DNA of 43,863 nt, taken from NCBI GenBank assembly GCA_945787285.1, contig CALZIC010000120.1, positions 1-43,863 of the forward strand. Direction: 5' to 3'. Under the pieces are notes generated by a model. The model saw only the letters and a program-made list of their open reading frames with translations, was not told the origin of the DNA and did no database searches. Position numbers and translations under genes: made by a program. Below, one piece after another: positions 5,451 through 32,628 of this stretch. Position 1 is the first letter of the stretch; each line of letters opens with the position of its first letter. This stretch comes from an uncultured Desulfuromonadales bacterium. Lineage in GTDB: Bacteria > Desulfobacterota > Desulfuromonadia > Desulfuromonadales > Trichloromonadaceae.

Positions 5451-6017
5451 CTAAATAGTGGTGAAAGGGGAAAGGGTCCAGATCACCTTGGCATCGCCCT
5501 CACCGACATTGTCCCAGCGGTGCGGAAGATGCGACTTGAAAGAGATGCTGTCGCCCGGGCTAAGGGAATGCTTTTCACCGGCGATTGTAACCTCTATCTG
5601 CCCCTCAAGTACATAGATAAGTTCATCCCCGGGGTGATACATATTTTTAACACCGCTGGTCCCCCCTTTGGGCACGGTACAGTAAAACGACATGAACTGG
5701 GGGTCACGCAGGCCCGAGGTGAAAGACTCGGTGTGCATATTGCTCTCATCATCGTAGACCGTTTGGTCGCGGGTACCCGGGGTGCTGAACACGACCTCAT
5801 GGGTGGTGCTCACCTCTTCGACGAAATAATTGATGCTCTTGTCAAAAACCCCGGCGAGCTTCAACAGGATCTCCACCGAGGGAATCGTCAGACCACGCTC
5901 GATGCGGGAAATCATGTTAGATGACACCTTGGACCTCTTCGCCAGGTCTTGGATGGTCATATCCTTTTTAAGACGGATCGCCTTGAGTTTTTTGCCAACG
6001 ATTTTTTTGGTCTTCAT
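5451..6017 (-). CDS. XRE-family HTH transcriptional regulator with C-terminal cupin domain
   Basis: 188 aa; HTH TIQDLAKRSKVSSNMISRIERG; cupin motif G-x5-H-x-H...GD. Confidence 0.85.
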   Translation of the reverse strand: MKTKKIVGKKLKAIRLKKDMTIQDLAKRSKVSSNMISRIERGLTIPSVEILLKLAGVFDKSINYFVEEVSTTHEVVFSTPGTRDQTVYDDESNMHTESFTSGLRDPQFMSFYCTVPKGGTSGVKNMYHPGDELIYVLEGQIEVTIAGEKHSLSPGDSISFKSHLPHRWDNVGEGDAKVIWTLSPFTTI

Positions 6018-6070: not shown

Positions 6071-6646
6071 CTATTGGGCCAGGTTAGGGGCCGGGGATAC
6101 GACCCACATAACGACCGTCTTCCCGTCATGGACATTCTTCCAGGTATGCGGAATCGACGCCTTGAAAATCAGCGAGTCCCCCTGGCCAAGCACATGATGT
6201 TCGTTGTTGACATTGAACTCTAGTCGTCCTTCGAGCACCAGGGCGAACTCTTCGCCGGTATGAACCATGCCCCCCTCTCCGCTGCTGCACCCCTCTTCCA
6301 GGGTGTCGTAAAAGACGGCAAAATTGGGGTCGCGAATCCCCTGGGTCAGGCTGGTGATCTGATGCTTGTCCTCAAAGAAGAATATCGGTTCGCCCTGCCC
6401 TTTTCTGGTCAGGACAACCGTCGAGCCCTTCTCCGCCTCTTCGACGAAATAATTAATGCTCATCCCGAAAGCATTGGCCAACTTCATCAGAATTTCGACC
6501 GAGGGCACGGTGAGCCCCCTTTCGATCCTTGATATCATGTTGGACGAGACCTTTGACCGGTCAGCCAGATCCTGAATGGTCATGTCATTTCGCAACCGGG
6601 TTGACTTAAGCTTCTTTCCTACCAACTGTTTAATCATGCCTGCCAT
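6071..6646 (-). CDS. XRE-family HTH + cupin transcriptional regulator (tandem paralog of 5451..6017)
   Basis: 191 aa; near-identical N-terminal HTH TIQDLADRSKVSSNMISRIERG; same architecture; 53-bp gap to the paralog. Confidence 0.85.
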   Translation of the reverse strand: MAGMIKQLVGKKLKSTRLRNDMTIQDLADRSKVSSNMISRIERGLTVPSVEILMKLANAFGMSINYFVEEAEKGSTVVLTRKGQGEPIFFFEDKHQITSLTQGIRDPNFAVFYDTLEEGCSSGEGGMVHTGEEFALVLEGRLEFNVNNEHHVLGQGDSLIFKASIPHTWKNVHDGKTVVMWVVSPAPNLAQ

Positions 6647-16174: not shown

Positions 16175-17003
16175 CCCCGGGAGCCTGTAGGACTTGACGG
16201 ACCGTAACGAGAAATTGGATGTTCGAGACCAGATTTTCGAGAATTTGAGAGCGAATAGCAGGGCTATTTGTCGAAAATTGTCGAGGATACTCCATTTGCT
16301 CAAGCTGGGTGACCAATCGGTCCAAAGCATCGACCACCAGGGCCTCGAGTTGCGCCCCCTTTTCGGCGGTGGCCCGGGTCGGGTCGCCCCAAACCCCGCC
16401 AGGCCAGAAACGGCGCTTGTTTCTCACCAGAATGCCGCTCGGAAAGGACGGAAACTCCCGCCTCCCCTCCCCCTTTACCAGATGCGGGTGCGAGTTGAGA
16501 ATCCGTGAGGTTTCGATCTCGCCGGCGTGCGAATCGCCTTCGGTCTCGATGAGACCGCGCCCCTCCCTTGCCGCCAGCATGTACTCGGTCAAAACGGCGA
16601 TGCCGATATCTTCGAAGCGCTCAAGCAGTTCTTCCCCGGCGTCGATCAGGGCCGAGGTATGGGTCCCGCCGGCATGACCGGTGATCAAAACGAAATTGCG
16701 CAGCCCCTGGCGCCTCAGAGAGGTCACGATGTCGATGGCCAGAGCTCTGATCGTTGACGTGGTGATGCTGATGGTGCCGGGATGTTCGGCGGTGGACCGG
16801 CAGACCCCGTACGGAATCGGCGGGGCGATGAAGATCGGACGTTTCTCTGCGAGACGGCGGCCGACCTCCACGGCATGCAGGGTATCGGTCGAAAGGGGCA
16901 GATGATCGCCGTGCTGCTCGGTCGCCCCGAAGGGGATCAACACCGTGCGGGTCTTTTCGAGCCCATCGGCAAACTCGCACATGGTCATCTCTTCAATAAT
17001 CAT
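16059..17003 (-). CDS. creatininase (creatinine amidohydrolase) family protein; C-terminal ~35 aa are translated from the dispersed repeat
   Basis: Motifs EQHGDHLPLSTD, HAGGTHT, GHAGEIETS. The ORF has no stop until 16059, so it runs through repeat copy A and overlaps the convergent DUF1858 gene. Confidence 0.7.
   Translation of the reverse strand: MIIEEMTMCEFADGLEKTRTVLIPFGATEQHGDHLPLSTDTLHAVEVGRRLAEKRPIFIAPPIPYGVCRSTAEHPGTISITTSTIRALAIDIVTSLRRQGLRNFVLITGHAGGTHTSALIDAGEELLERFEDIGIAVLTEYMLAAREGRGLIETEGDSHAGEIETSRILNSHPHLVKGEGRREFPSFPSGILVRNKRRFWPGGVWGDPTRATAEKGAQLEALVVDALDRLVTQLEQMEYPRQFSTNSPAIRSQILENLVSNIQFLVTVRQVLQAPGVTLRWLCSARQGADRCRPGEPRHRARLLQCQRSGSHGS
16194..16289 (+). repeat. dispersed repeat copy A (~95 bp, about 90 percent identical to 25524-25618)
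   Basis: direct comparison: GACCGtAACGAGAAATTGGATGTTCGAGaCCAG...AATTTGAGAGCGAATAGCAGGGCTATTTGTCGAAAATTGTCGAGGATA. Confidence 0.85.
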
Positions 17004-23161: not shown

Positions 23162-24395
23162 TCACTCTGACGCCATCTTCACCAGTCTCGGGTCGAACCG
23201 GGCCACCGTTTCCACCAGATCGGTCTGGGCCGCCATGACCTCATCGATATCCTTGTAGGCCATCGGCACCTCGTCCAGTCCGGCGGAGAGCAGGGTCACT
23301 CCGCGCTCATCGAGAAAAGCGCGTGCCTGCTTCCAGGTGAAATTCTGCCTGGCAGCCTTGCGGCTCATTTTTCGACCGGCACCATGGGAGGCGGAGCAGA
23401 GAGAGTCGGGGTGGCCCTTGCCGCGAACCACGTACCCTGACGTCCCCATGGAACCCGGGATGATGCCGAGAACGCCCATTCCTGCCGGGGTCGCCCCTTT
23501 TCGGTGAACCACCACCTGCTCACCGTTGTGAACCTCATTCCAGGCGAAGTTGTGATGATTCTCCACATCGAGAAGGACCTCGGCCCCGAGATGGTCGGCG
23601 ATGTCACGGTGGATCAGGGCATGATTGGCCGCTGAGTAAAGGCCCATCAGTTCCATGGCATTCCAGTACCCCTGCCCTTCTTCGCTCTGCAGATCGAGCC
23701 AGGCCAGCGGCTGAAGCTGGTTCGGGAGCTCGGGATGCAGCTCACGAGCAACACGGCTGTAGTGTTCAGCGATCGAACCGCCGGTCCCCCTGCTGCCGCT
23801 GTGGCTGAGCAGGGCCAGGTAAGTGCCGGCCTCCAGCCCCAGGTCAGACTGCAAAAGGGTCAGTTCACCAAACTCTACAAAGTGGTTGCCGCTGCCGCTG
23901 GTGCCCAGCTGCTTCCAGGCCTTGTCCTTTAGGCCGCGGGTCAGGCGGGTTATGCTCCAATCTGCATCCATGACATCGTGCTCTTTGCGGTGTGAAAAGG
24001 TGGCCCCGACACCAAAAGAGGTCGATCGGCAGCCCGTACCCCTGATGCGCATCGGGCATCAGCGCGCCGGAGACCGAAACCGGCAACCTGCAGGCGTTTT
24101 CCATCTGCTCTACCGCACTCTGTTCAAGGTCGGTCCCCCAGCGGCAATAGGGAGCAGGATCCTGCCGATGATCGAAGCGGGCCCGGAACTCCTTGACCTC
24201 CTGGTAGGTGAGCGCAAAGGAGCCGAACAGCTCATGCTCAAGATAGTCCTGCGGATTATCAACGACCGCGGACATCATCGCCCGGATCGACTGTTTATCC
24301 TGGCCCGCCCTGGCCGCCTGAGCGGTGGCCTGCTGAGCCAGTTTCATCAGGGAGCCCTTGGGGACCCCGAGATTTGTCAATTCTCTGTTTTTCAT
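23162..24395 (-). pseudogene. rtcB: RNA-splicing ligase RtcB, split into two overlapping ORFs by a frameshift at an A4/T4 run (about 24014-24020)
   Basis: ORF 23865..24395 carries the N-terminal part ending MPDAHQGYGLPI. ORF 23162..24052 carries the rest: GSGNHF, HHNFAWNE, RKGATPAGMGVLGIIPGSMGTSGYVVRGKG, SHGAGRKMSR, MAYKDIDEVMAAQTDLVE. The frames switch right after the metal-binding PDAHQGYG motif. Confidence 0.85.
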
Positions 24396-25462
24396 TGTTG
24401 ATCTCCTTCCTTGCCCGTGATCCGGATCTCCCAGACCTTAGGCGCAACCTTCACCATGTCCACCCAGACCTTAGGCGCAACCTTCACCATGTCCACCTCG
24501 ATATCCAGGAACTCTTTGAGTACTTCGATATTGGTCGTGGTATGGCGACTGGGCGCCAGGGTCCGAAATGCCCCGCCACCGGCCAGGGCCATCGGCAGCA
24601 GCAGCTGGTCGGCCAGGTGCTGCCCCACCGGGACCCCTGCGGCCAGATAGTCCTGAACCTGCTTGACGGTCTGGCTCGCCACCTTTTCGGCCCGCACACG
24701 CCATTCGCCGAAACCGGTGAAGATCTCGGTCAGGTTTTCGCTGGCCACCTCAAGGGTGAGGATATTGCCCGGACCTTGCGATTCAGCGACTTCTTCCACC
24801 TGCAGAGATTCCGCTGGCCAGGAGAGCTTGTTGCGCACCACTCGGATTTCACGCTCGCCGATGCTACGTGGCAGCCTGGCGACCATGGCACTGGCCCGAC
24901 GCCCGACGATATCGCCCCGTTCGAGCAGGCTGATCCTCGAGAAACGGGACACCGGTTCAATATGAACGAAAAACCTTCCGCCACCGGCCGGGTAAAAACC
25001 TGGCCGTTCCAGGGTTGCGGACACCTTGGGCCCCATGCGCTGCAGCAGGGGGAGAAAGGACCGGGCCAGAAAATCGAATGGGGGCGCATGAGGGTTATGG
25101 GTTCCCCCTTCCAGAACCAGTTCCGAAGCCCCTTCCGCCAGGCAAAGGGCCGGCAGAACAGTCTGCAGCACCAGGGTGCAGCTCCCGGCCGTGCCTATGG
25201 AGAAATGATACTGCCCCGCCTCGATGGCCTTGGGAATAAAGACCAGGTCTTGAGAACCGATCCGATTCCCTTCAACCTCGGCAGCACCGACCTCCACTGC
25301 GGCATTCACCGCGGTAAGGTGTTGCCTCATCAGCCCGGGCTTGTTGCGCCGAGCGCGGATTTTTTCGATTCGAAATGGTTTTCCGGTCACCAGGGAGAGG
25401 GCCAGCGAGCTGCGCAGAATCTGTCCGCCTCCTTCGCCTTGGGACCCGTCAATGGTAATCAT
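24392..25462 (-). CDS. rtcA: RNA 3'-terminal phosphate cyclase
   Basis: 356 aa; MITIDGSQGEGGGQILRSSLALSLVTGKPFRI N-terminus and RtcA-wide similarity; 4-bp overlap with rtcB start. Contains an in-frame 33-bp tandem duplication near the 3' end (24432-24497). Confidence 0.9.
   Translation of the reverse strand: MITIDGSQGEGGGQILRSSLALSLVTGKPFRIEKIRARRNKPGLMRQHLTAVNAAVEVGAAEVEGNRIGSQDLVFIPKAIEAGQYHFSIGTAGSCTLVLQTVLPALCLAEGASELVLEGGTHNPHAPPFDFLARSFLPLLQRMGPKVSATLERPGFYPAGGGRFFVHIEPVSRFSRISLLERGDIVGRRASAMVARLPRSIGEREIRVVRNKLSWPAESLQVEEVAESQGPGNILTLEVASENLTEIFTGFGEWRVRAEKVASQTVKQVQDYLAAGVPVGQHLADQLLLPMALAGGGAFRTLAPSRHTTTNIEVLKEFLDIEVDMVKVAPKVWVDMVKVAPKVWEIRITGKEGDQQ
24432..24497 (-). repeat. 33-bp perfect tandem duplication (x2) inside rtcA 3' end, in frame (VDMVKVAPKVW x2)
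   Basis: cagaccttaggcgcaaccttcaccatgtccacc repeated twice in direct sequence. Confidence 0.9.
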
Positions 25463-25523
25463 GGGTTGACTCCTTGCATTTCAGTATTCATGGAATGAGG
25501 CTTACCCAGGAGGCTGTCGGGCT

Positions 25524-25690
25524 TGCCGGACCGAAACGAGAAATTGGATGTTCGAGGCCAGTTTTTCTTGAATTTGAGAGCGAATAGCAGGGCTATTTGT
25601 CGAAAATTGTCGAGGATATGGGCCGATCAGCCTATTTCGGGCTATTTGTCGAAAATTGTCGAGGATATGGGCCGATCAGCCGATTTCGCA
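25524..25690 (+). repeat. dispersed repeat copy B with internal 49-bp tandem duplication (25591-25639 and 25640-25688)
   Basis: the first ~95 bp match 16194-16289; the unit ggctatttgtcgaaaattgtcgaggatatgggccgatcagccNatttcg is repeated twice in tandem with 1 mismatch. Confidence 0.85.
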
Positions 25691-25732
25691 GTCGGTTTCT
25701 GGTAAGTCCGAGAGCCTCCTAGCATACAGCGG

Positions 25733-26839
25733 TCAAAGAAGATTGACCACCCGCTCGGCAAGACCTTTTTCGCCAAGAACGACATTCATTTTGGAACTGC
25801 CGGCCACCTTCTCCAGCACTTCGAGTTCGCGCAGTCGCATGAGGGTCGGGTTGTTCTCCAGCAGGCGGGCCGTATTGGCCTGGCTGCGCATGGCGGCCGT
25901 CTCTTCGCGGCGCACGATGAGGTTGGCCTCCGCGGCCTTGCGTGCCTGGATGACCTGGTTGAGCAGGTCTTTCATCTCCCCCGGCAGGATCAGATCACGG
26001 ATGCCGAGGCGGATGATTTCTATACCGAAACTGCCTGAGCGCTGGCGCAAATTCCCCTCGAGTTCGCCAGCCACCCGGTCCTTTTCACTGAGCAGGGCAT
26101 CGAGGCTGCAAGTTCCGATGATCTCCCGCAGGGCCAGCTGGGCCTCGCGGTAAAGCGCCTGCTCGATGTTTTCAACGGCCTTCACCGCCCGGTGCGGGTC
26201 GGTAACCCGGTAGACGGCCTGGGCGTTGAGACGCAGGGTGACGTTGTCTGCGGTCATGATCTCCTGGCCCGAGATGTCGAGGACCGTCTCACGCAGGTCG
26301 ACCTGCTGAATCCGCAGCCGTCCGGCATTCTTCCAGAACATGTAGCGCCCCGGACCGAAGGTCTTTACGTATTCTCCGTCTTTGAAGAAAACCGCGGCAA
26401 AACCATCTTCGACAACAACACTCTCCAATTTTTCATCGGCCCCCGTCGACAAAAGAATTGCGCTCATCTCCTTGTGCTCAAACCGCACCTGACGTGCATC
26501 AACGATTTCAATCTTGATATCGCGAAGTCCTGTCCAAAGGGCATAGATCCCAGGGCCAACAACCTTGGCAAAACGCCCTTCGATCCAGACCAGGGCTCGC
26601 TGGCTATCCTTAAGGTCGAGCACCACGGCCTCTTCCCCGAGAACGCCCGCCTTGACAATCAGATCAAGCTTGTCGTGCACCAGCCAGGGATCACGCTGGG
26701 AGACTACATCGACCCGGATTTTGTTCAACGGATCGGTAAACCAGTGACGACCGGTGCCCAGAAGACCCTCGAACTCCTTATCTTTGAACAACAGACCCTT
26801 TTCGTGTGAGCGGACTTTTACGCTGCCGATTCCAATCAT
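25733..26839 (-). CDS. SPFH/Band 7 domain protein (stomatin/prohibitin-like) with C-terminal coiled coil
   Basis: SPFH-like core with coiled-coil tail (ARKAAEANLIVRREETAAMRSQANTARLL). Start at MIGIGSVKV (ATG 26839) with ggaggagaaggag RBS. Confidence 0.75.
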   Translation of the reverse strand: MIGIGSVKVRSHEKGLLFKDKEFEGLLGTGRHWFTDPLNKIRVDVVSQRDPWLVHDKLDLIVKAGVLGEEAVVLDLKDSQRALVWIEGRFAKVVGPGIYALWTGLRDIKIEIVDARQVRFEHKEMSAILLSTGADEKLESVVVEDGFAAVFFKDGEYVKTFGPGRYMFWKNAGRLRIQQVDLRETVLDISGQEIMTADNVTLRLNAQAVYRVTDPHRAVKAVENIEQALYREAQLALREIIGTCSLDALLSEKDRVAGELEGNLRQRSGSFGIEIIRLGIRDLILPGEMKDLLNQVIQARKAAEANLIVRREETAAMRSQANTARLLENNPTLMRLRELEVLEKVAGSSKMNVVLGEKGLAERVVNLL

Positions 26840-27036
26840 CTCCTTCTCCTCCTGTTGTCTCCATCCACCCTGGAAATAGGTGGCCCTCGGGGGGCGAGAC
26901 TTCCTCACGTTAGCCACATCGCCGATGCGGAGTGTCGTTTAAGAATATGCGCCCGGTTGTTTTCAGCAGGGGTCGCGGCCATCGGTTCGACTTTTGTTGC
27001 CGCCGAAGGCCGGGTGGCTCTGATCGCTGCCGTCTG

Positions 27037-27050
27037 CTACCGGTCTGCCC
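27037..27050 (-). promoter_or_regulatory. weak candidate sigma54 -24/-12 element (GGCAG-N7-AGCA) upstream of the SPFH gene
   Basis: the reverse complement reads tGGGCAGaccggtAGCAg with correct GG-N10-GC spacing but 2 mismatches to TGGCAC-N5-TTGCA; speculative. Confidence 0.2.
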
Positions 27051-27193
27051 AAACGGAATCCACGCACTGCATAGCATCTGACCGATGTTGTCCTCGACCG
27101 GACCGGGTCCAATCGATTCGGCTGACGGGAAGCCTCTCCCCCCTCAGGCCGGGTTGGTGACCGCCTGCGCGGTCAAGACGGGTTAATAGCCCG

Positions 27194-27264
27194 TTGTTGG
27201 TGCAGGACTCGAACCTGCGACTCCCGTGGGGTACACGGTGCTCTACCGACTGAGCTAACCAGAG
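27194..27264 (-). pseudogene. tRNA-like element / probable degenerate tRNA (intact D-arm and T-arm; 5-nt anticodon loop; acceptor stem only 4 of 7 bp)
   Basis: minus strand reads CTCTGGT-TA-GCTC-AGTCGGTA-GAGC-A-CCGTG-TACCC-CACGG-GAGTC-GCAGG-TTCGAGT-CCTGC-ACCAACA-A. Canonical GCTCAGTCGGTAGAGC D-arm and GGTTCGAGTCC T-arm. Anticodon loop has 5 nt instead of 7. No CCA. Confidence 0.5.
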
Positions 27265-27478
27265 ACTGCTACCGGCCTTCGTTAGAACCCATTTCGGAAC
27301 ACACAGCTCTGACCGCATCGTGCGTAGCGCTGTGAGCCGATGGCCCGGCGGTATCAGCCGCTTGTGTCTTTGGATATTTCAATGGTTGTGCCAAAGGAAT
27401 TCCAAAACCCTGACAATCTCATACTGGCATGTATTTACACTATTTTTACGGTTTAAAGAACAGCTCGTGGATGTTTGC

Positions 27479-27508
27479 TTGACATAACCATTCGGAATTT
27501 TCTATAAA
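27479..27508 (+). promoter_or_regulatory. sigma70-type promoter for rtcR (TTGACA-18 bp-TATAAA)
   Basis: TTGACA 27479-27484, TATAAA 27503-27508, 28 bp before the rtcR ATG. Confidence 0.45.
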
Positions 27509-27535
27509 TGCCTATACTTTTCTATAGGATTTTAT

Positions 27536-29146
27536 ATGAAAAAATCAGTCGCCATCGGCCTGCTCGGACCGGTTCTGGATAACGGCAAAGGCGCTAAGCG
27601 CTGGGAGCGCTGGCGCCCCTCGGTCGCACTCTGTCAACACGAGGAGCTGCTCGTTGACCGTTTCGTCCTGCTCTACCAGCGGCGCTACGCCAGCCTTCTG
27701 GAACGCATTGTCGAAGACATTCGCCAGGTCTCCCCGGAAACGGAAGTCGTCCCTCAGCTCATGGAGTTCGACGACCCGTGGGATTTCGAAAACGTCTTTG
27801 GAGCCCTGCACGACTTCGCCCGTGAATATCCGTTTGATCCCGACCAGGAGGACTACCTGGTACATATCACGACAGGCACCCATGTGGCCCAGATCTGCCT
27901 GTTTCTGCTGACCGAGGCGCATTATTTCCCGGCCCGCCTGATCCAGACCAGCCCCTCGCGCAAAGCGGACCAGCTTGCCTCGGGCACCTATTCCATCATC
28001 GACCTCGACCTTTCGCGCTACGACCGCATTGCCACCCGTTTCAGCCAGGAACAGCGGGATGATATCTCGTTTCTCAAATCAGGCATTGAAACCCGCAATG
28101 CCCGATTCAACCATTTGATCGCGCAGATCGAGCAGGTGGCGATCCGGTCGGTGGACCCGATTTTGATTACCGGCCCAACAGGTGCAGGCAAGTCAAAACT
28201 GGCCCGACGGATATTCGAACTGAAAAAGGCGCGGCGCCAAATCCCAGGGAACTTCGTCGAGGTCAATTGCGCCACCCTGCGTGGCGACGCCGCCATGTCC
28301 GCCCTCTTCGGCCATCGCCGCGGGGCGTTCACCGGCGCTTTGCAGGACCGTCAGGGGCTGCTGCGTGCTGCCGACGGCGGGATTCTCTTTCTCGATGAAG
28401 TGGGGGAGTTGGGACGGGATGAGCAGACCATGCTGCTGCGCGCCGTCGAGGAGAAGCGTTTTATGCCCCTGGGCTCGGATGCTGAAACAGAGAGCGATTT
28501 CCAACTTCTATGCGGTACCAATCGGGACCTTTACCAGGATGTGGACAAGGGGCGCTTCCGTGAAGACCTGCTGGCCCGGATAAACCTCTGGACCTTCGCT
28601 CTGCCGGGGCTGGCCGATCGCCCCGAGGATATCGAACCCAATCTCGATTACGAGCTCGACCGGTTCACGAGCCGCACCGGTGCCCGCATCACCATCAACA
28701 AAGAGGCGCGCCAGCATCTGCTCCGTTTCGCCACCTCCGCCGAGGCCACCTGGCCAGCCAATTTCCGCGATCTCAACGGCGCGGTCACGCGCATGGCCAC
28801 CCTCGCCCCGACCGGCCGCATCACCACCGAAACCGTAAAGGAAGAGGTTGCGCGTCTTCACCATGCCTGGCGGTCGCGAGGTGGAAATATAAAGGAGGAA
28901 ATTCTTCTGGAAGTACTCGGGCAGGGTGGGATTGAAAAACTCGACCTGTTCGACCGGGCCCAACTGGCCGAGGTGTTGCGCGTCTGCCGCGCCTCAAAAA
29001 ACCTTTCGGAGGCGGGCCGCACCCTGTTTGCCGTGTCGCGCCAGGAGAAAAAGCAGGCCAACGACGCCGACCGACTGCGCAAGTATCTCGCCCGGTTTGA
29101 CCTGAACTGGGAAAGCGTCCGAAGCACGGGGTCCACACCTCATTAA
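27536..29146 (+). CDS. rtcR: sigma54-dependent transcriptional regulator RtcR (N-terminal CARF domain, AAA+ sigma54-interaction domain)
   Basis: 536 aa; collinear with E. coli RtcR as recalled (MKKSVAIGLLGPVLDNGKGAKRWERWRPSVALCQHEEL..., DYLVHITTGTHVAQICLFLL, ARLIQTSPSRK, GPTGAGKS Walker A, GAFTGA, FREDLLARINLWTF). Confidence 0.9.
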   Translation: MKKSVAIGLLGPVLDNGKGAKRWERWRPSVALCQHEELLVDRFVLLYQRRYASLLERIVEDIRQVSPETEVVPQLMEFDDPWDFENVFGALHDFAREYPFDPDQEDYLVHITTGTHVAQICLFLLTEAHYFPARLIQTSPSRKADQLASGTYSIIDLDLSRYDRIATRFSQEQRDDISFLKSGIETRNARFNHLIAQIEQVAIRSVDPILITGPTGAGKSKLARRIFELKKARRQIPGNFVEVNCATLRGDAAMSALFGHRRGAFTGALQDRQGLLRAADGGILFLDEVGELGRDEQTMLLRAVEEKRFMPLGSDAETESDFQLLCGTNRDLYQDVDKGRFREDLLARINLWTFALPGLADRPEDIEPNLDYELDRFTSRTGARITINKEARQHLLRFATSAEATWPANFRDLNGAVTRMATLAPTGRITTETVKEEVARLHHAWRSRGGNIKEEILLEVLGQGGIEKLDLFDRAQLAEVLRVCRASKNLSEAGRTLFAVSRQEKKQANDADRLRKYLARFDLNWESVRSTGSTPH

Positions 29147-29206: not shown

Positions 29207-29896
29207 ATGCTCAAAGTGATCTTCGCCATATTTATCCTGCTGACGAGCCCAGCCTCCCTCCTTTCTGCCGAGGAGGGAAGCATATGCTATGGGACGACCA
29301 GCAAAGGGCGACTGGAGGGAGGGGTTTCTTTTCCGACATCCGGCAACAACTATAAAAGCTACAGCACTCTGGGCAACCTGCTTGGCCGGACGTATGTTCA
29401 CAGCAGCGTTCAGAAAGTCGTTCTCAATGCTTTCACAACCCTTGAGAAAAGCTATCCCGATAGAGTCTTTATGTACGGTGAAACGGGCTGGAAAAGCGGC
29501 GGTCGATTCAAACCGCACAAAACACATCAGAACGGGCTTTCCGTTGACTTTATGGTTCCGGTATTGAACAGCGACAAACAGTCAGTTTATCTGCCGACCA
29601 GTCCGTTCAATAAATTCGGTTATGACATCGAATTCAATGATCGAGGACAATACGAAAATTACACCATCGATTTTGAGGCAATAGCCGCCCACCTCGTCGA
29701 ACTTCACAAAGAAGCAAGGAGCTCCAGTATTGATATCTGGCGGGTTATTTTTGCCCCCAAGCTACAGCCACAGCTGTTCAGCACCAAGCATGGTACCTAT
29801 CTGAAAAAGAATCTGGAATTTTCCAAACGGCCATCCTGGGTTCGCCACGATGACCATTACCATGTTGACTTCAAGCTCCCATGTGAAAAACTCTAG
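29207..29896 (+). CDS. mepA: penicillin-insensitive murein endopeptidase (peptidase M74, MepA-like) with signal peptide
   Basis: 229 aa; signal peptide; LAS-type zinc motifs HKTHQNGLSVDF and HDDHYHVDF matching MepA's HASHQNGLDVD and HRAHMHVRL. Confidence 0.7.
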   Translation: MLKVIFAIFILLTSPASLLSAEEGSICYGTTSKGRLEGGVSFPTSGNNYKSYSTLGNLLGRTYVHSSVQKVVLNAFTTLEKSYPDRVFMYGETGWKSGGRFKPHKTHQNGLSVDFMVPVLNSDKQSVYLPTSPFNKFGYDIEFNDRGQYENYTIDFEAIAAHLVELHKEARSSSIDIWRVIFAPKLQPQLFSTKHGTYLKKNLEFSKRPSWVRHDDHYHVDFKLPCEKL

Positions 29897-29986
29897 TGGC
29901 CTGTTTGGTTAATCGCGTCGATTAATTCTGAGGCATTTTTGACCCTGTCAAGGCGCACCGACGCAGCCCTAGCTGAGCTTAAGTCA
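29892..29986 (+). repeat. ~95-bp direct repeat R1 (about 85 percent identical to R2 at 31545-31640), immediately after the mepA stop
   Basis: ctagtggcctgtttggttaatcgcgtcgattaattctgaggcatttttgaccctgtcaaggcgcaccgacgcagccctagctgagcttaagtca aligned against R2. Confidence 0.8.
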
Positions 29987-30262: not shown

Positions 30263-31471
30263 TTAAACCTTAACCGCACGCTCCCGAAGATACTCAACCT
30301 GTTCTGGTAAAAGCGGATCCATCACTTTGTACCTGGCAGGTATTTCATCCTCCACCGCTGAAATGTAGTCAGGACCCAGACAAGCGTTAAACACCGACCA
30401 GCCCACATTACCTAGAATTTCCTCATTTTCATGATCATAAAGAGAGACTTCGTCAGTCAACGGCAAATATGTAGGAATGTTCAAAGTGTAAACCGAAAAG
30501 GTCATGATTCCAGCCTCGCTATTAGTCGCCTGGAATTTCGAAACAAAAACCTCCTCTCCTACTTGCGCCTGCAGATGCTCTTTCTGCTCATCATATTGCG
30601 TAAAAGCTTCTTTCACACGTTGGAGGGACGCAGCTTGTCGACCAGGTTCACCCTCAAGCGGCAACCATTGCTTCCAAAGCCCATCGTTACTTTTTTGCCA
30701 GAAACTTTGGCTAAAGGGCCTGTGATTTTCAGAGAACTTTTCCCCAATCGCGATCATTCTCAATAAAGTTTCATCCGTCCCCTGGTCTGTGACCAAGCAA
30801 ATAGAATGGGACGGTGCAAAAAATATCGGATTCCCATCAAAAGGAATACGGACATTATCGTCAGCCGCAACGATCCGCGCAAAATCATAGTCATCTTGAT
30901 ATGTTGACATCCAAATGTGCGGCTCCACCTGTTCCCACTGATCTAACCCAGTGGCTCTTACCAAGGCAGCACCAGCTATCCGAAGGCCTTCTTCTTTTGT
31001 AATCCCAGCTTTTTCTATATCTTCATTTTTGACGGTGGATATGGATTCTTCGTTGTCGGAAATCAGCTCCAATAACGCCTCGCCAATTCTAAATAGTGAT
31101 AAATCTGTCTGCTCATACCCTTTTGAGGCCATCATTTTTTTTCTCAAAGAGATTTCAAAATCGGTGCGTACTCGTATTGCAAGTGAGTTCATGAAATCGT
31201 CTGGGTCAAACACACGGGGAGAGAGCAGTTCGTTAAGAAGCCGCTCAATAGATGGAGCTCTCTCTTTTCTTCCAAGCTCTTTCATTTTCATGAAAATGTT
31301 GCCCAGGAAAATGCTGGTGGGGGCCTTGTCCCGACCTCTCTCCTCGACCGACAGAGTCACTTCGCGGGCCTCAGGCTTATATTCAATCACCAATGAAGGA
31401 TCAATATACTTGGCAATACGACCAATATCTTTGGCTAGCTTCTTCTCGGTATATCGAAACATTTTAGTCAT
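30263..31471 (-). CDS. hypothetical protein, 402 aa, no recognised domain; low-GC gene flanked by direct repeats R1/R2
   Basis: long ORF with coherent codon usage, terminator downstream, AT-rich relative to flanks; no family recognised from sequence. Confidence 0.6.
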   Translation of the reverse strand: MTKMFRYTEKKLAKDIGRIAKYIDPSLVIEYKPEAREVTLSVEERGRDKAPTSIFLGNIFMKMKELGRKERAPSIERLLNELLSPRVFDPDDFMNSLAIRVRTDFEISLRKKMMASKGYEQTDLSLFRIGEALLELISDNEESISTVKNEDIEKAGITKEEGLRIAGAALVRATGLDQWEQVEPHIWMSTYQDDYDFARIVAADDNVRIPFDGNPIFFAPSHSICLVTDQGTDETLLRMIAIGEKFSENHRPFSQSFWQKSNDGLWKQWLPLEGEPGRQAASLQRVKEAFTQYDEQKEHLQAQVGEEVFVSKFQATNSEAGIMTFSVYTLNIPTYLPLTDEVSLYDHENEEILGNVGWSVFNACLGPDYISAVEDEIPARYKVMDPLLPEQVEYLRERAVKV

Positions 31472-31544: not shown

Positions 31545-31640
31545 GCTAGTGGGCTGTTTGGTTATTCGTGTCAGTTAATTCTGAGTCATTTTGGTTGCTG
31601 TCAAGGCGCGCCGACGCAGGCCTAGCCTTGCGTTAAGTCA
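31545..31640 (+). repeat. ~95-bp direct repeat R2 (pair of R1)
   Basis: ctagtgggctgtttggttattcgtgtcagttaattctgagtcattttggttgctgtcaaggcgcgccgacgcaggcctagccttgcgttaagtca. Confidence 0.8.
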
Positions 31641-31961: not shown

Positions 31962-32321
31962 TTATTTCACTTCGGCCGCAGGTGTCATGATCGCGGCGTA
32001 CTCAGCGGCATCCAGGTTACCGTCCTGATTAGCGTCGGCTGATTCAAAACTCAGCTGCAGCGCATCACTGGCGCCAGCTTCTTCCTTGCTGATAGTGCTG
32101 TTCTGGTCAACATCCAGGGCTTCAAAGATCGCATTCCGCTCCTCAGCCACGCCCTGCTCCTCAGCCACGCCCTGCTCCTCAGCCACGTTCTGCTCCTCAG
32201 CCACGTTCTGCTCCTCAGCCACGTTCTGCTCCTTAGCCACACCCTGCTCTTGGGTTGGGGCACAAGCGGCACAAGTAAGCATCAGGGCAGCAAGAAGAGT
32301 CAAAATTACATTTTTGTTCAT
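31962..32321 (-). CDS. lipoprotein with seven 6-aa tandem repeats (VAEEQN) and two EF-hand-like Ca-binding loops
   Basis: Start at MNKNVILTLLAALMLTCAACA (lipobox LTC, aaggag RBS). Then 7 x VA(K/E)E(Q/R)(N/G) encoded by 18-bp tandem repeats at about 32115-32240. Then DVDQNSTISKEE and DANQDGNLDAAE EF-hand loops. ORF-track start 32546 is likely too far upstream. Confidence 0.65.
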   Translation of the reverse strand: MNKNVILTLLAALMLTCAACAPTQEQGVAKEQNVAEEQNVAEEQNVAEEQGVAEEQGVAEERNAIFEALDVDQNSTISKEEAGASDALQLSFESADANQDGNLDAAEYAAIMTPAAEVK

Positions 32322-32628
32322 TTTTTTAGCTCCTTCTAAAGGGTCTGTTGAAATGCCATATTGGCTGTCTATTCTACCCTTCAGCAACCGCTGTGCCATG
32401 ATAGTTTTATCTACAAAAAACGATGCCTTACATTGACCCGCCAGAATTTCTGCCTTGCTTGGGGAAAATTTCTGTTCGCCGGCTGCGACAGATAGAAGGG
32501 GTCGGCCATAAAAGGGGCGCAAAAACAACAAGTTCGTTTGTCTCAAAATAGCGACCGCTCATGGTAGTGCATGAATCTTCAAGGGGAATGTGATCCGGAT
32601 TACGATCCCTATAATTTTCACTTTTTCC

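Follow-up and report, generated by a model that had tools for sequence, protein, structure and literature searches.

An RtcR- and sigma-54-linked RNA-repair locus with an SPFH gene and a tRNA-like RNA: a probable operon of the Band-7/b7a-tRNA/RtcB type

Introduction

Why would a set of RNA-repair genes be split by an SPFH (Band-7) gene and a tRNA-like element? The question is raised by a locus at positions 23162-29146 of a 43,863-nucleotide (nt) stretch of Desulfuromonadales DNA (contig CALZIC010000120.1; the whole stretch is hereafter called the window), in which the ligase gene rtcB and the RNA 3'-terminal phosphate cyclase gene rtcA lie apart from rtcR, which encodes a sigma-54 enhancer-binding activator. 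A first-pass annotation had described the arrangement as unusual and the tRNA-like element as degenerate, either a striking coincidence beside rtcR or the remnant of an old integration site. As related in a passage of Wang et al. 2018 (10.1101/312249), Burroughs and Aravind predicted in 2016 a system in which a Band-7 gene and a b7a-tRNA stand next to RtcB; the passage adds that Band-7/b7a-tRNA is occasionally interchanged with Rsr/YrlA and describes the system as not yet validated. No follow-up on b7a-tRNA was found in the literature searched. We conclude, with a probability of roughly three in four, that the locus is an operon for RNA repair under RtcR/sigma-54 control, of the Band-7 + b7a-tRNA-like RNA + RtcA + RtcB type; that the genes are correctly identified and the operon is built in this way is, taken separately, highly probable.

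Results

Gene content and layout in relatives

The listing of open reading frames (ORFs) and domain scans gave the order rtcB(-), rtcA(-), repeat, SPFH(-), tRNA-like element(-), rtcR(+) (Table 1), and ORF listing, Pfam and NCBIfam together bore out both the order and the gene identities proposed in the first-pass annotation. The rtcR product matched Pfam RtcR (8.1e-87) and Sigma54_activat (5.3e-48) as well as the NCBIfam equivalog RNA_repair_RtcR (826 bits against a cut-off of 650), the rtcA product matched its NCBIfam equivalog with 460 bits (cut-off 352), and the C-terminal part of rtcB matched Pfam RtcB (2.7e-67). For the SPFH gene the start was placed at ATG 26842 and not at GTG 26917, where the longest ORF begins, because the family is a tight one, of 368-residue proteins that are more than 60% identical across distant taxa.

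Relatives were sought by a scan of genome contigs with the single SPFH protein, which yielded 11 loci, mostly of Planctomycetota, and by a metagenome scan with an alignment, which was far more productive. In Syntrophotalea carbinolica DSM 2380 and in the closest relative, a metagenome-assembled genome (locus L014) whose SPFH protein is 93% identical to that of the window, rtcR is followed by about 0.7 kb of non-coding DNA and then by SPFH-rtcA-rtcB, with an intact RtcB of 470 and 459 residues, respectively. The layout rtcR-RNA-SPFH-rtcA-rtcB is shared by 13 non-redundant RtcR-linked loci, mostly metagenome contigs, and the order is thus not the oddity for which it had been taken.

Table 1. Positions of the features discussed, in window coordinates; cells are empty where no strand applies.
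Feature	Position	Strand	Remarks
rtcR	27536-29146	+	sigma-54 enhancer-binding activator with RtcR/CARF-type N-terminal domain
Candidate RtcR upstream activating sequence	27502-27528		three CTATAR-type repeats, ~10-11 nt apart (about one helical turn)
Predicted sigma-54 -24/-12 promoter TGGCACAACCATTGAA	27393-27378	-	TGGCAC-N5-TTGAA; 1 mismatch to TGGCAC-N5-TTGCW
Conserved structured RNA	27365-26883	-	~483 nt, three domains; ahead of SPFH; includes the b7a-tRNA of the literature
RNA 5' domain	27354-27269	-	nested helices 27354-27349/27274-27269, 27343-27341/27291-27289, 27339-27323/27315-27295
tRNA-like domain	27261-27198	-	D arm, T arm, 5-bp anticodon stem with 5-nt loop, 4-bp acceptor stem
Two small hairpins after tRNA-like domain	27194-27158	-	ACGGG-CTATTAA-CCCGT; GACCGC-GCAG-GCGGTC
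RNA 3' domain	27149-26883	-	long-range closing helix 27149-27134/26898-26883
SPFH/Band-7 gene	25733-26842	-	Pfam Band_7 2.7e-33; slipin-type; 368 residues
Lineage-specific small dispersed repeat	25505-25688		in SPFH-rtcA spacer; internal 49-bp tandem duplication 25590-25688
rtcA (RNA 3'-terminal phosphate cyclase)	24392-25462	-	Pfam RTC 2.2e-80; intact
rtcB pseudogene	23162-24395	-	two frames: N-part 24395-24024, C-part 24028-23165
Second repeat copy	16176-16289		91% over 114 nt to 25505-25618; at 3' end of creatininase-family ORF

Promoter, operon structure and candidate RtcR binding site

The window has both an rtcR gene in divergent orientation and, as a prediction from the sequence, a -24/-12 promoter preceding the operon. 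The first-pass annotation had called the promoter candidate weak and placed it upstream of the SPFH gene; it deviates from the consensus at a single position, it precedes the tRNA-like element, with some 12 nt to the structured RNA described below and some 535 nt to the ATG of SPFH, and relatives keep it in place. Transcription is accordingly predicted to start near 27367. Of the 13 RtcR-linked loci, 12 have a corresponding element 10-22 nt ahead of the first position conserved in the RNA, whereas among loci without a detected RtcR it was found in only 1 of 44 (L071, whose contig is linked to rtcA/rtcB and does not extend far enough to show rtcR) and in none of the other 43. As had already been noted for the region directly before rtcA, the 270-nt spacer between SPFH and rtcA holds no -24/-12 match at up to two mismatches.

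On the operon strand, neither a sigma-70-like promoter nor a terminator-like site was found between the RNA, SPFH, rtcA and rtcB, the SPFH-rtcA spacer included; the sole minus-strand terminator call (27074-27060) coincides with a conserved helix of the RNA. Given the order of these elements after the sigma-54 site, the operon would run from the promoter through the RNA and SPFH to rtcA and rtcB. An SPFH-rtcA-rtcB operon, as suggested earlier, is thus the best reading of the predicted signals.

Adjoining the rtcR start, about 110-135 nt upstream of the sigma-54 promoter, the window reads CCTATAG-N4-GTATAGG-N4-TTATAG. Of the 11 RtcR-linked relatives shown, 9 have such CTATAR-type repeats at the corresponding place, and in L052 and L076 they stand at a greater distance from the start of rtcR; about 20 nt beyond them, in the window as in its RtcR-linked equivalents, a GTCAAG is conserved. 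We only infer that the repeats are a candidate RtcR binding site.

Two further sites of the sigma-54 type were observed. In the window, a perfect -24/-12 match, TGGCACAGCGGTTGCT, is located at 32383-32398 (-), 5' of a small lipoprotein-like ORF (MNKNVILTLLAALMLTCAAC...) that contains a tandem repeat of 18 bp x 6 (32138-32249) coding for EEQNVA-type repeats. On the Citrobacter freundii plasmid NZ_CP151862.1 (L098, 3954-7907), rtcR is divergent from a slipin-family gene, behind which comes a gene with a nucleotidyltransferase domain, and rtcBA are absent; the gap of 449 nt holds a TGGCAC-type promoter and the T-arm-like GGGTTCGATTCCC, and neither ARAGORN nor Rfam found a tRNA there.

The tRNA-like domain

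The tRNA-like element was called by both ARAGORN (27193-27264, minus strand) and the Rfam tRNA model (27198-27261, 39 bits, E 7e-5 for the whole window, covering model positions 4-67 only), and each program found exactly one such element in the 43.9 kb; on its existence the first-pass annotation was right. Its D arm (GCTCAG-TCGG-TAGAGC) and T arm (GCAGG-TTCGAGT-CCTGC) are the elbow-forming arms of a canonical tRNA with the conserved nucleotides present. In an alignment of 45 sequences the D stem does not vary, pairing in the T stem reaches 100% and the anticodon stem covaries, with compensatory changes at 5 of 5 pairs and 99.6% pairing. The anticodon loop, TACCC, has 5 nt in the window and likewise in the two closest relatives; across the family it measures 5-8 nt and is hypervariable, position 33 being often C, A or G, so that U33 is not conserved. 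The acceptor stem has four pairs in the window and three to four conserved pairs in the family, short of the seven of a tRNA, and positions 1-3 are unpaired. Because of the short acceptor stem and the 5-8-nt loop lacking a conserved U33, the domain is, judged by its predicted fold, a tRNA mimic and not a decoding tRNA.

The incomplete acceptor stem and shortened loop could also be those of a tRNA gene that decayed at an old integration site and has nothing to do with the rtc genes. Against this, the sequence and position of the element are kept across Desulfuromonadales, Planctomycetota and other phyla with compensatory changes, it stands at a fixed place before SPFH in 67 of 71 loci, it sits inside a larger conserved RNA, and a conserved sigma-54 promoter precedes it. 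With its D, anticodon and T arms complete and conserved from one phylum to the next, the element bears no sign of decay, and relatives with the same gene arrangement keep the tRNA-like piece, which speaks against its being incidental. Comparative conservation and covariation thus refute the integration scar, to which we give next to no credence; the supposed coincidence is rather the core of a conserved RNA of about 483 nt in front of SPFH. A functional connection of the tRNA-like element with the Rtc system is supported.

A structured RNA of about 483 nt

The stretch from the promoter to SPFH can be aligned throughout between the window, L014 and S. carbinolica. An nhmmer search with the window leader matched 64 loci, often over leader positions 40-520 and in all cases just upstream of SPFH. 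Of the 71 non-redundant loci with at least 650 nt of DNA upstream of SPFH, 67 proved to have the RNA directly before that gene when searched with a profile hidden Markov model built from 45 sequences; in the window the model has a single match (27363-27130, 176 bits).

Folding of the 45 sequences with RNAalifold revealed a 5' domain of nested helices followed by cloverleaf-like D, anticodon and T arms. By pair counts, helices 1 and 3 of the 5' domain have compensatory changes at 18 of 22 pairs. For the 5' half as a whole, including the tRNA-like domain, 93.2% of cells are paired, as against 33-44% when the partners are slid by 1-3 columns, and compensatory changes occur at 29 of 45 pairs; the observed values were reached in none of 500 shuffles. 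The stems of the two small hairpins that follow also show compensatory changes between relatives on inspection of the alignment (e.g. GCAGG/CCTGC, CAGGG/CCCTC). The 3' domain, analysed with MAFFT and RNAalifold in 37 sequences, contains 37 pairs, 27 of them with compensatory changes and 92.2% paired (36-48% when slid), and in its closing helix a GAGGGGGG box pairs with CCCCCC. From the extent of the 5' and 3' covarying domains, the RNA should span approximately the 483 nt given in Table 1, with its 3' end 41 nt before the SPFH ATG.

At permissive thresholds, Rfam 15 contained no family for the 5' or the 3' domain in the window, L026 and L013, only the tRNA part being matched, and GOLLD, ROOL and similar large RNAs were ruled out as its identity by this lack of a family match. 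No YrlA match was obtained in window positions 25400-27600 at E values up to 1; the S. carbinolica RNA gave a sub-threshold one (19.6 bits), which fits a predicted tRNA mimicry of the YrlA kind. The RNA, about six times the size of a tRNA and without an Rfam family, is possibly new.

The SPFH protein

The AlphaFold2 model of the SPFH protein (mean predicted local distance difference test score, pLDDT, 84) consists of three five-stranded beta modules, an SPFH alpha/beta core and a helix of about 60 residues. The beta modules span residues 1-182 and are visible as a sequence repeat, hhhF-DG-x-a-x-x-h-GPG-x-a-x-hW. No membrane anchor was detected by Kyte-Doolittle hydropathy (maximum over 19 residues 1.33, as against the usual 1.6; no dedicated transmembrane predictor was applied), and the N-terminus of the model comprises beta modules only. 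The protein is thus predicted to be soluble with a stomatin-like core, and the lack of an N-terminal anchor in both hydropathy and model sets it apart from membrane-anchored SPFH scaffolds such as stomatin, HflK/C and QmcA. In Foldseek searches, only one PDB protein, the major vault protein (MVP), could be aligned over the full length of the model (409-466 columns, E about 1e-10). Eukaryotic vaults, composed of MVP and vault RNA, resemble the pair predicted here in being soluble, in their repeated beta modules, SPFH-like shoulder and long helix, and in having a small non-coding RNA. Large rings and cages are formed by members of the SPFH family. A PADLOC search left the protein unmatched, nor does NCBIfam contain a family dedicated to it.

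Does the RNA act together with this protein or merely in front of its gene? As a cis-regulatory 5' leader of the SPFH-rtcAB mRNA, akin to a riboswitch or attenuator, it might control translation or stability, possibly as the binding partner of a tRNA-interacting factor or of a signal from damaged RNA, and would then be no trans-acting partner of SPFH. It would suit a leader that the RNA always precedes the SPFH start codon by 30-100 nt on one and the same strand, with no terminator-like site in between and no separate SPFH promoter found. Nevertheless, at most loci without rtc genes the RNA ends a long tRNA array, the transcripts of which are normally cut into stable RNAs; the 3' closing helix stops about 41 nt before the ATG and clear of the ribosome-binding site; and the known analogue, the Y RNA beside rsr, is a trans-acting RNA encoded next to its protein. 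We therefore consider a purely cis-acting leader unlikely.

tRNA arrays in loci without rtc genes

Genes of the rtc system were present at only about 20 of the 94 loci then fetched. At the remaining loci, the RNA-SPFH pair very often closes a tRNA array on its own strand, with at least 3 upstream tRNA genes at 30 loci and at least 10 at 16 loci, the arrays ranging from 3 to about 30 genes; a contig from IMG/VR carries an array of 36. The order of the array recurs (... Ser-gct, Arg-tct, His-gtg, gap, Trp, Thr, Arg(s), Cys), and the gap between His and Trp is occupied by a gene for a 198-residue HNH endonuclease. Array loci with no rtc genes nearby include L006, L022, L026, L029, L042, L045, L051, L061, L088 and L095. 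That RNA-SPFH pairs end long tRNA arrays is possibly a new observation. The genes downstream of SPFH in the loci without rtc genes are unrelated among themselves.

A different placement was seen in the rtc-linked loci L020, L024, L031, L032 and L036, where a tRNA array follows rtcB, about 3 kb downstream of SPFH; L024 and L036 have an HNH-type ORF there as well. L036, which is rtcA/rtcB-linked, and L040, which has rtcB upstream of SPFH, are both without a detectable RNA.

Comparison with known systems

With the predicted Band-7/b7a-tRNA/RtcB system the window shares a Band-7 gene, an adjacent gene for a tRNA-like RNA and an RtcB gene nearby, as far as that system is outlined in the passage cited above (10.1101/312249). 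The window has RtcA and RtcR in addition, its tRNA-like part is one domain of the covarying 483-nt RNA, and its rtcB is a pseudogene. As read from its sequence, the locus belongs to this system, with which it agrees in every feature that could be tested.

Since its features match the predicted system, the locus would be the SPFH counterpart of the Salmonella rsr-yrlBA-rtcBA operon, which encodes the Ro60 protein Rsr and the Y RNAs YrlA and YrlB. Both have RtcR and sigma-54 control, and in both a gene for a ring- or cage-forming RNA-binding protein and a tRNA-like non-coding RNA come before the two rtc genes (PMC7790460; 10.1101/312249). The protein of the window is, however, an SPFH and not a TROVE/Ro60 protein, a TROVE domain being found by Pfam scan in none of the ORFs of the locus, and its RNA precedes the protein gene. 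Compared with the E. coli rtcR/rtcBA locus, the window has the same regulator family, the same two enzymes, divergent orientation and sigma-54 control; in contrast, about 1.9 kb (RNA, SPFH and repeat) separate the promoter from rtcA, so that the canonical immediate adjacency of rtcR and rtcBA is lacking, the order is rtcA-rtcB instead of rtcB-rtcA, and RtcB is of a subtype with an N-terminal extension of about 85 residues. An SPFH gene embedded among rtc genes is also known from P. aeruginosa PA14, where PaFlo8 (PA14_60630) lies among rtcR, rtcA and rtcB, although no associated RNA is mentioned there (PMC13086221).

The long tRNA arrays of cyanobacteria (L-arrays) have an HNH neighbour, are linked to rtcB by neighbourhood and are co-regulated with it, and their operonic tRNAs were proposed as possible sponges for toxin RNases (PMC8421152); a passage of PMC12803027 describes tRNA array units as a putative anti-defence system. 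The 30 related loci with same-strand tRNA arrays and an HNH gene before RNA-SPFH are similar to these, whereas the window has no array and a single tRNA-like match in its 43.9 kb. A term search of PMC8421152 found no mention of SPFH, band 7, stomatin, prohibitin or HflC.

These parallels bear on another possible role of the tRNA-like domain, that of bait or decoy for anticodon nucleases, with SPFH as an accessory. The domain would either compete with cellular tRNAs or, once cleaved, yield a cyclic-phosphate fragment that activates RtcR in a positive feedback. The anticodon loop is the sole hypervariable part of an otherwise very conserved domain, RtcR of Salmonella is activated by tRNA fragments (PMC7790460), and the family is tied to HNH-bearing arrays of the kind for which sponge and anti-defence functions were proposed. 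Yet the 5-nt loop of the window and its two closest relatives is an unlikely nuclease substrate, the tRNA-like domain that YrlA carries was not cleaved in Salmonella (PMC7790460), and the variability of the loop could simply reflect lack of constraint. Bait or decoy is in our judgement an improbable account of the domain as a whole.

The rtcB lesion and the repeats

The reading frame of rtcB is disrupted right after the codons for PDAHQGYGLPI. The first-pass annotation had ascribed the disruption to a frameshift at an A4 run, an explanation that had to be rejected, as alignment of the DNA to L014 shows one clean 146-nt gap with its junction at about 24022-24028. By tblastn against the intact 459-residue RtcB of L014, residues 125-171 are missing, i.e. 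47 conserved residues. The stretch missing here, GGVLAAKGVVIPFAVGMDIACRMKL..., is kept in both of the intact relatives that were compared, and it includes metal-binding residues. With this segment gone and no second rtcB in the window, the ligase arm is probably inactive here, while the RNA, SPFH, rtcA and rtcR appear intact from their sequences.

An artefact of assembly or sequencing in an organism that has an intact ligase gene could produce the same picture, all the more as the window may stem from a metagenome assembly, no other part of the operon is damaged and the protein sequence on either side of the gap shares 88-92% identity with the intact homologue. The loss is nonetheless a clean one of 146 nt and no homopolymer error, and perfect tandem duplications of 33 bp and 49 bp nearby suggest real recent indel activity, which leaves an artefact rather doubtful. 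The 33-bp duplication lies in frame within rtcA (24430-24495); as a result VDMVKVAPKVW occurs twice near the C-terminus, a gain of 11 residues over L014 and L013. The 49-bp duplication belongs to the dispersed repeat of the SPFH-rtcA spacer, of which the first-pass annotation had spoken and which we confirmed by its second copy (Table 1). The repeat was rejected as a part of the system, with two copies in the window and none in the same spacer of its relatives, which is 10 nt long in L013 and has a different insert in L014. This 215-nt insert (L014 9107-9322) bears an inverted repeat, CACAGAGGCAC ... GTGCCTCTGTGG. The SPFH-rtcA junction seems to attract small insertions.

Other features of the window

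Beyond rtcR, the neighbours of the window differ from those of L014. The first in the window is a Peptidase_M74 gene (29207-29896), and in L014 (1-5555) large Peptidase_C14 (caspase-like) and CHAT-domain genes adjoin rtcR. Further on, 81-nt direct repeats, 85% identical (29893-29973 and 31546-31626), flank an ORF of 402 residues without a Pfam match (30263-31471, minus strand), and repeats and ORF may together represent a small cassette that was inserted. Two direct repeats of 196 nt, 71% identical and 623 nt apart, were found at 5813-6008 and 6436-6631.

Discussion

If the locus is the RtcR/sigma-54-controlled operon proposed here, the CARF-type domain of RtcR would sense damaged-tRNA signals, as shown for Salmonella RtcR, and switch on the operon from a start at about 27367. 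The transcript would begin with the three-domain RNA, the middle domain of which mimics the elbow arms of a tRNA, and this RNA, released or as a 5' leader, would bind the oligomeric soluble SPFH protein to form a ribonucleoprotein, a counterpart of the Ro60-Y RNA (Rsr-YrlA) complex. As RtcA and RtcB process cleaved tRNAs, the tRNA-like elbow might then provide a scaffold, imitate the substrate or act as a decoy. For the ribonucleoprotein function of RNA and SPFH, which is argued by analogy, we would offer slightly less than even odds.

Several points weigh against our interpretation. The transcription start, the processing of the RNA and its binding to SPFH are all deduced from sequence. The constant position of the RNA immediately upstream of SPFH, with no terminator between them, equally suits a cis-acting leader, and at 4 of the 71 SPFH loci (L010, L036, L040, L078) the RNA was not detectable. 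In P. aeruginosa PA14, deletion of PaFlo8 had no phenotype in assays of growth, virulence factors, motility, biofilm and oxidative stress (PMC13086221). Moreover, with rtcB disrupted and three recent indels within 1.7 kb (the 146-nt deletion and the 33-bp and 49-bp duplications), the operon may be decaying in this organism.

A wider reading can be formulated, although we hold it to be unlikely. The b7a-tRNA would be the mere core of a three-domain RNA of about 480 nt, and this RNA the obligate partner of a soluble, possibly vault-like SPFH cage protein, the two forming a widespread ribonucleoprotein that ends both RtcR operons and HNH-bearing tRNA arrays and acts as a general device of tRNA-damage surveillance or decoy, the anticodon loop being diversified by nuclease toxins.

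Conclusions

For the source genome, the locus would be an ordinary member of its family with a broken ligase gene. For the family, the b7a-tRNA/Band-7 prediction of 2016 gains a concrete anatomy, namely a predicted sigma-54 start, RNA boundaries, a covarying structure and a putatively soluble SPFH partner, and cultivable organisms with related loci include S. carbinolica and P. aeruginosa PA14 (PaFlo8). Furthermore, the near-obligate pairing of RNA and SPFH and its position at the end of arrays bring together three subjects that are commonly dealt with one by one: Rtc RNA repair, tRNA arrays, regarded as a response to translational stress or toxins, and SPFH assemblies of the non-membrane kind.

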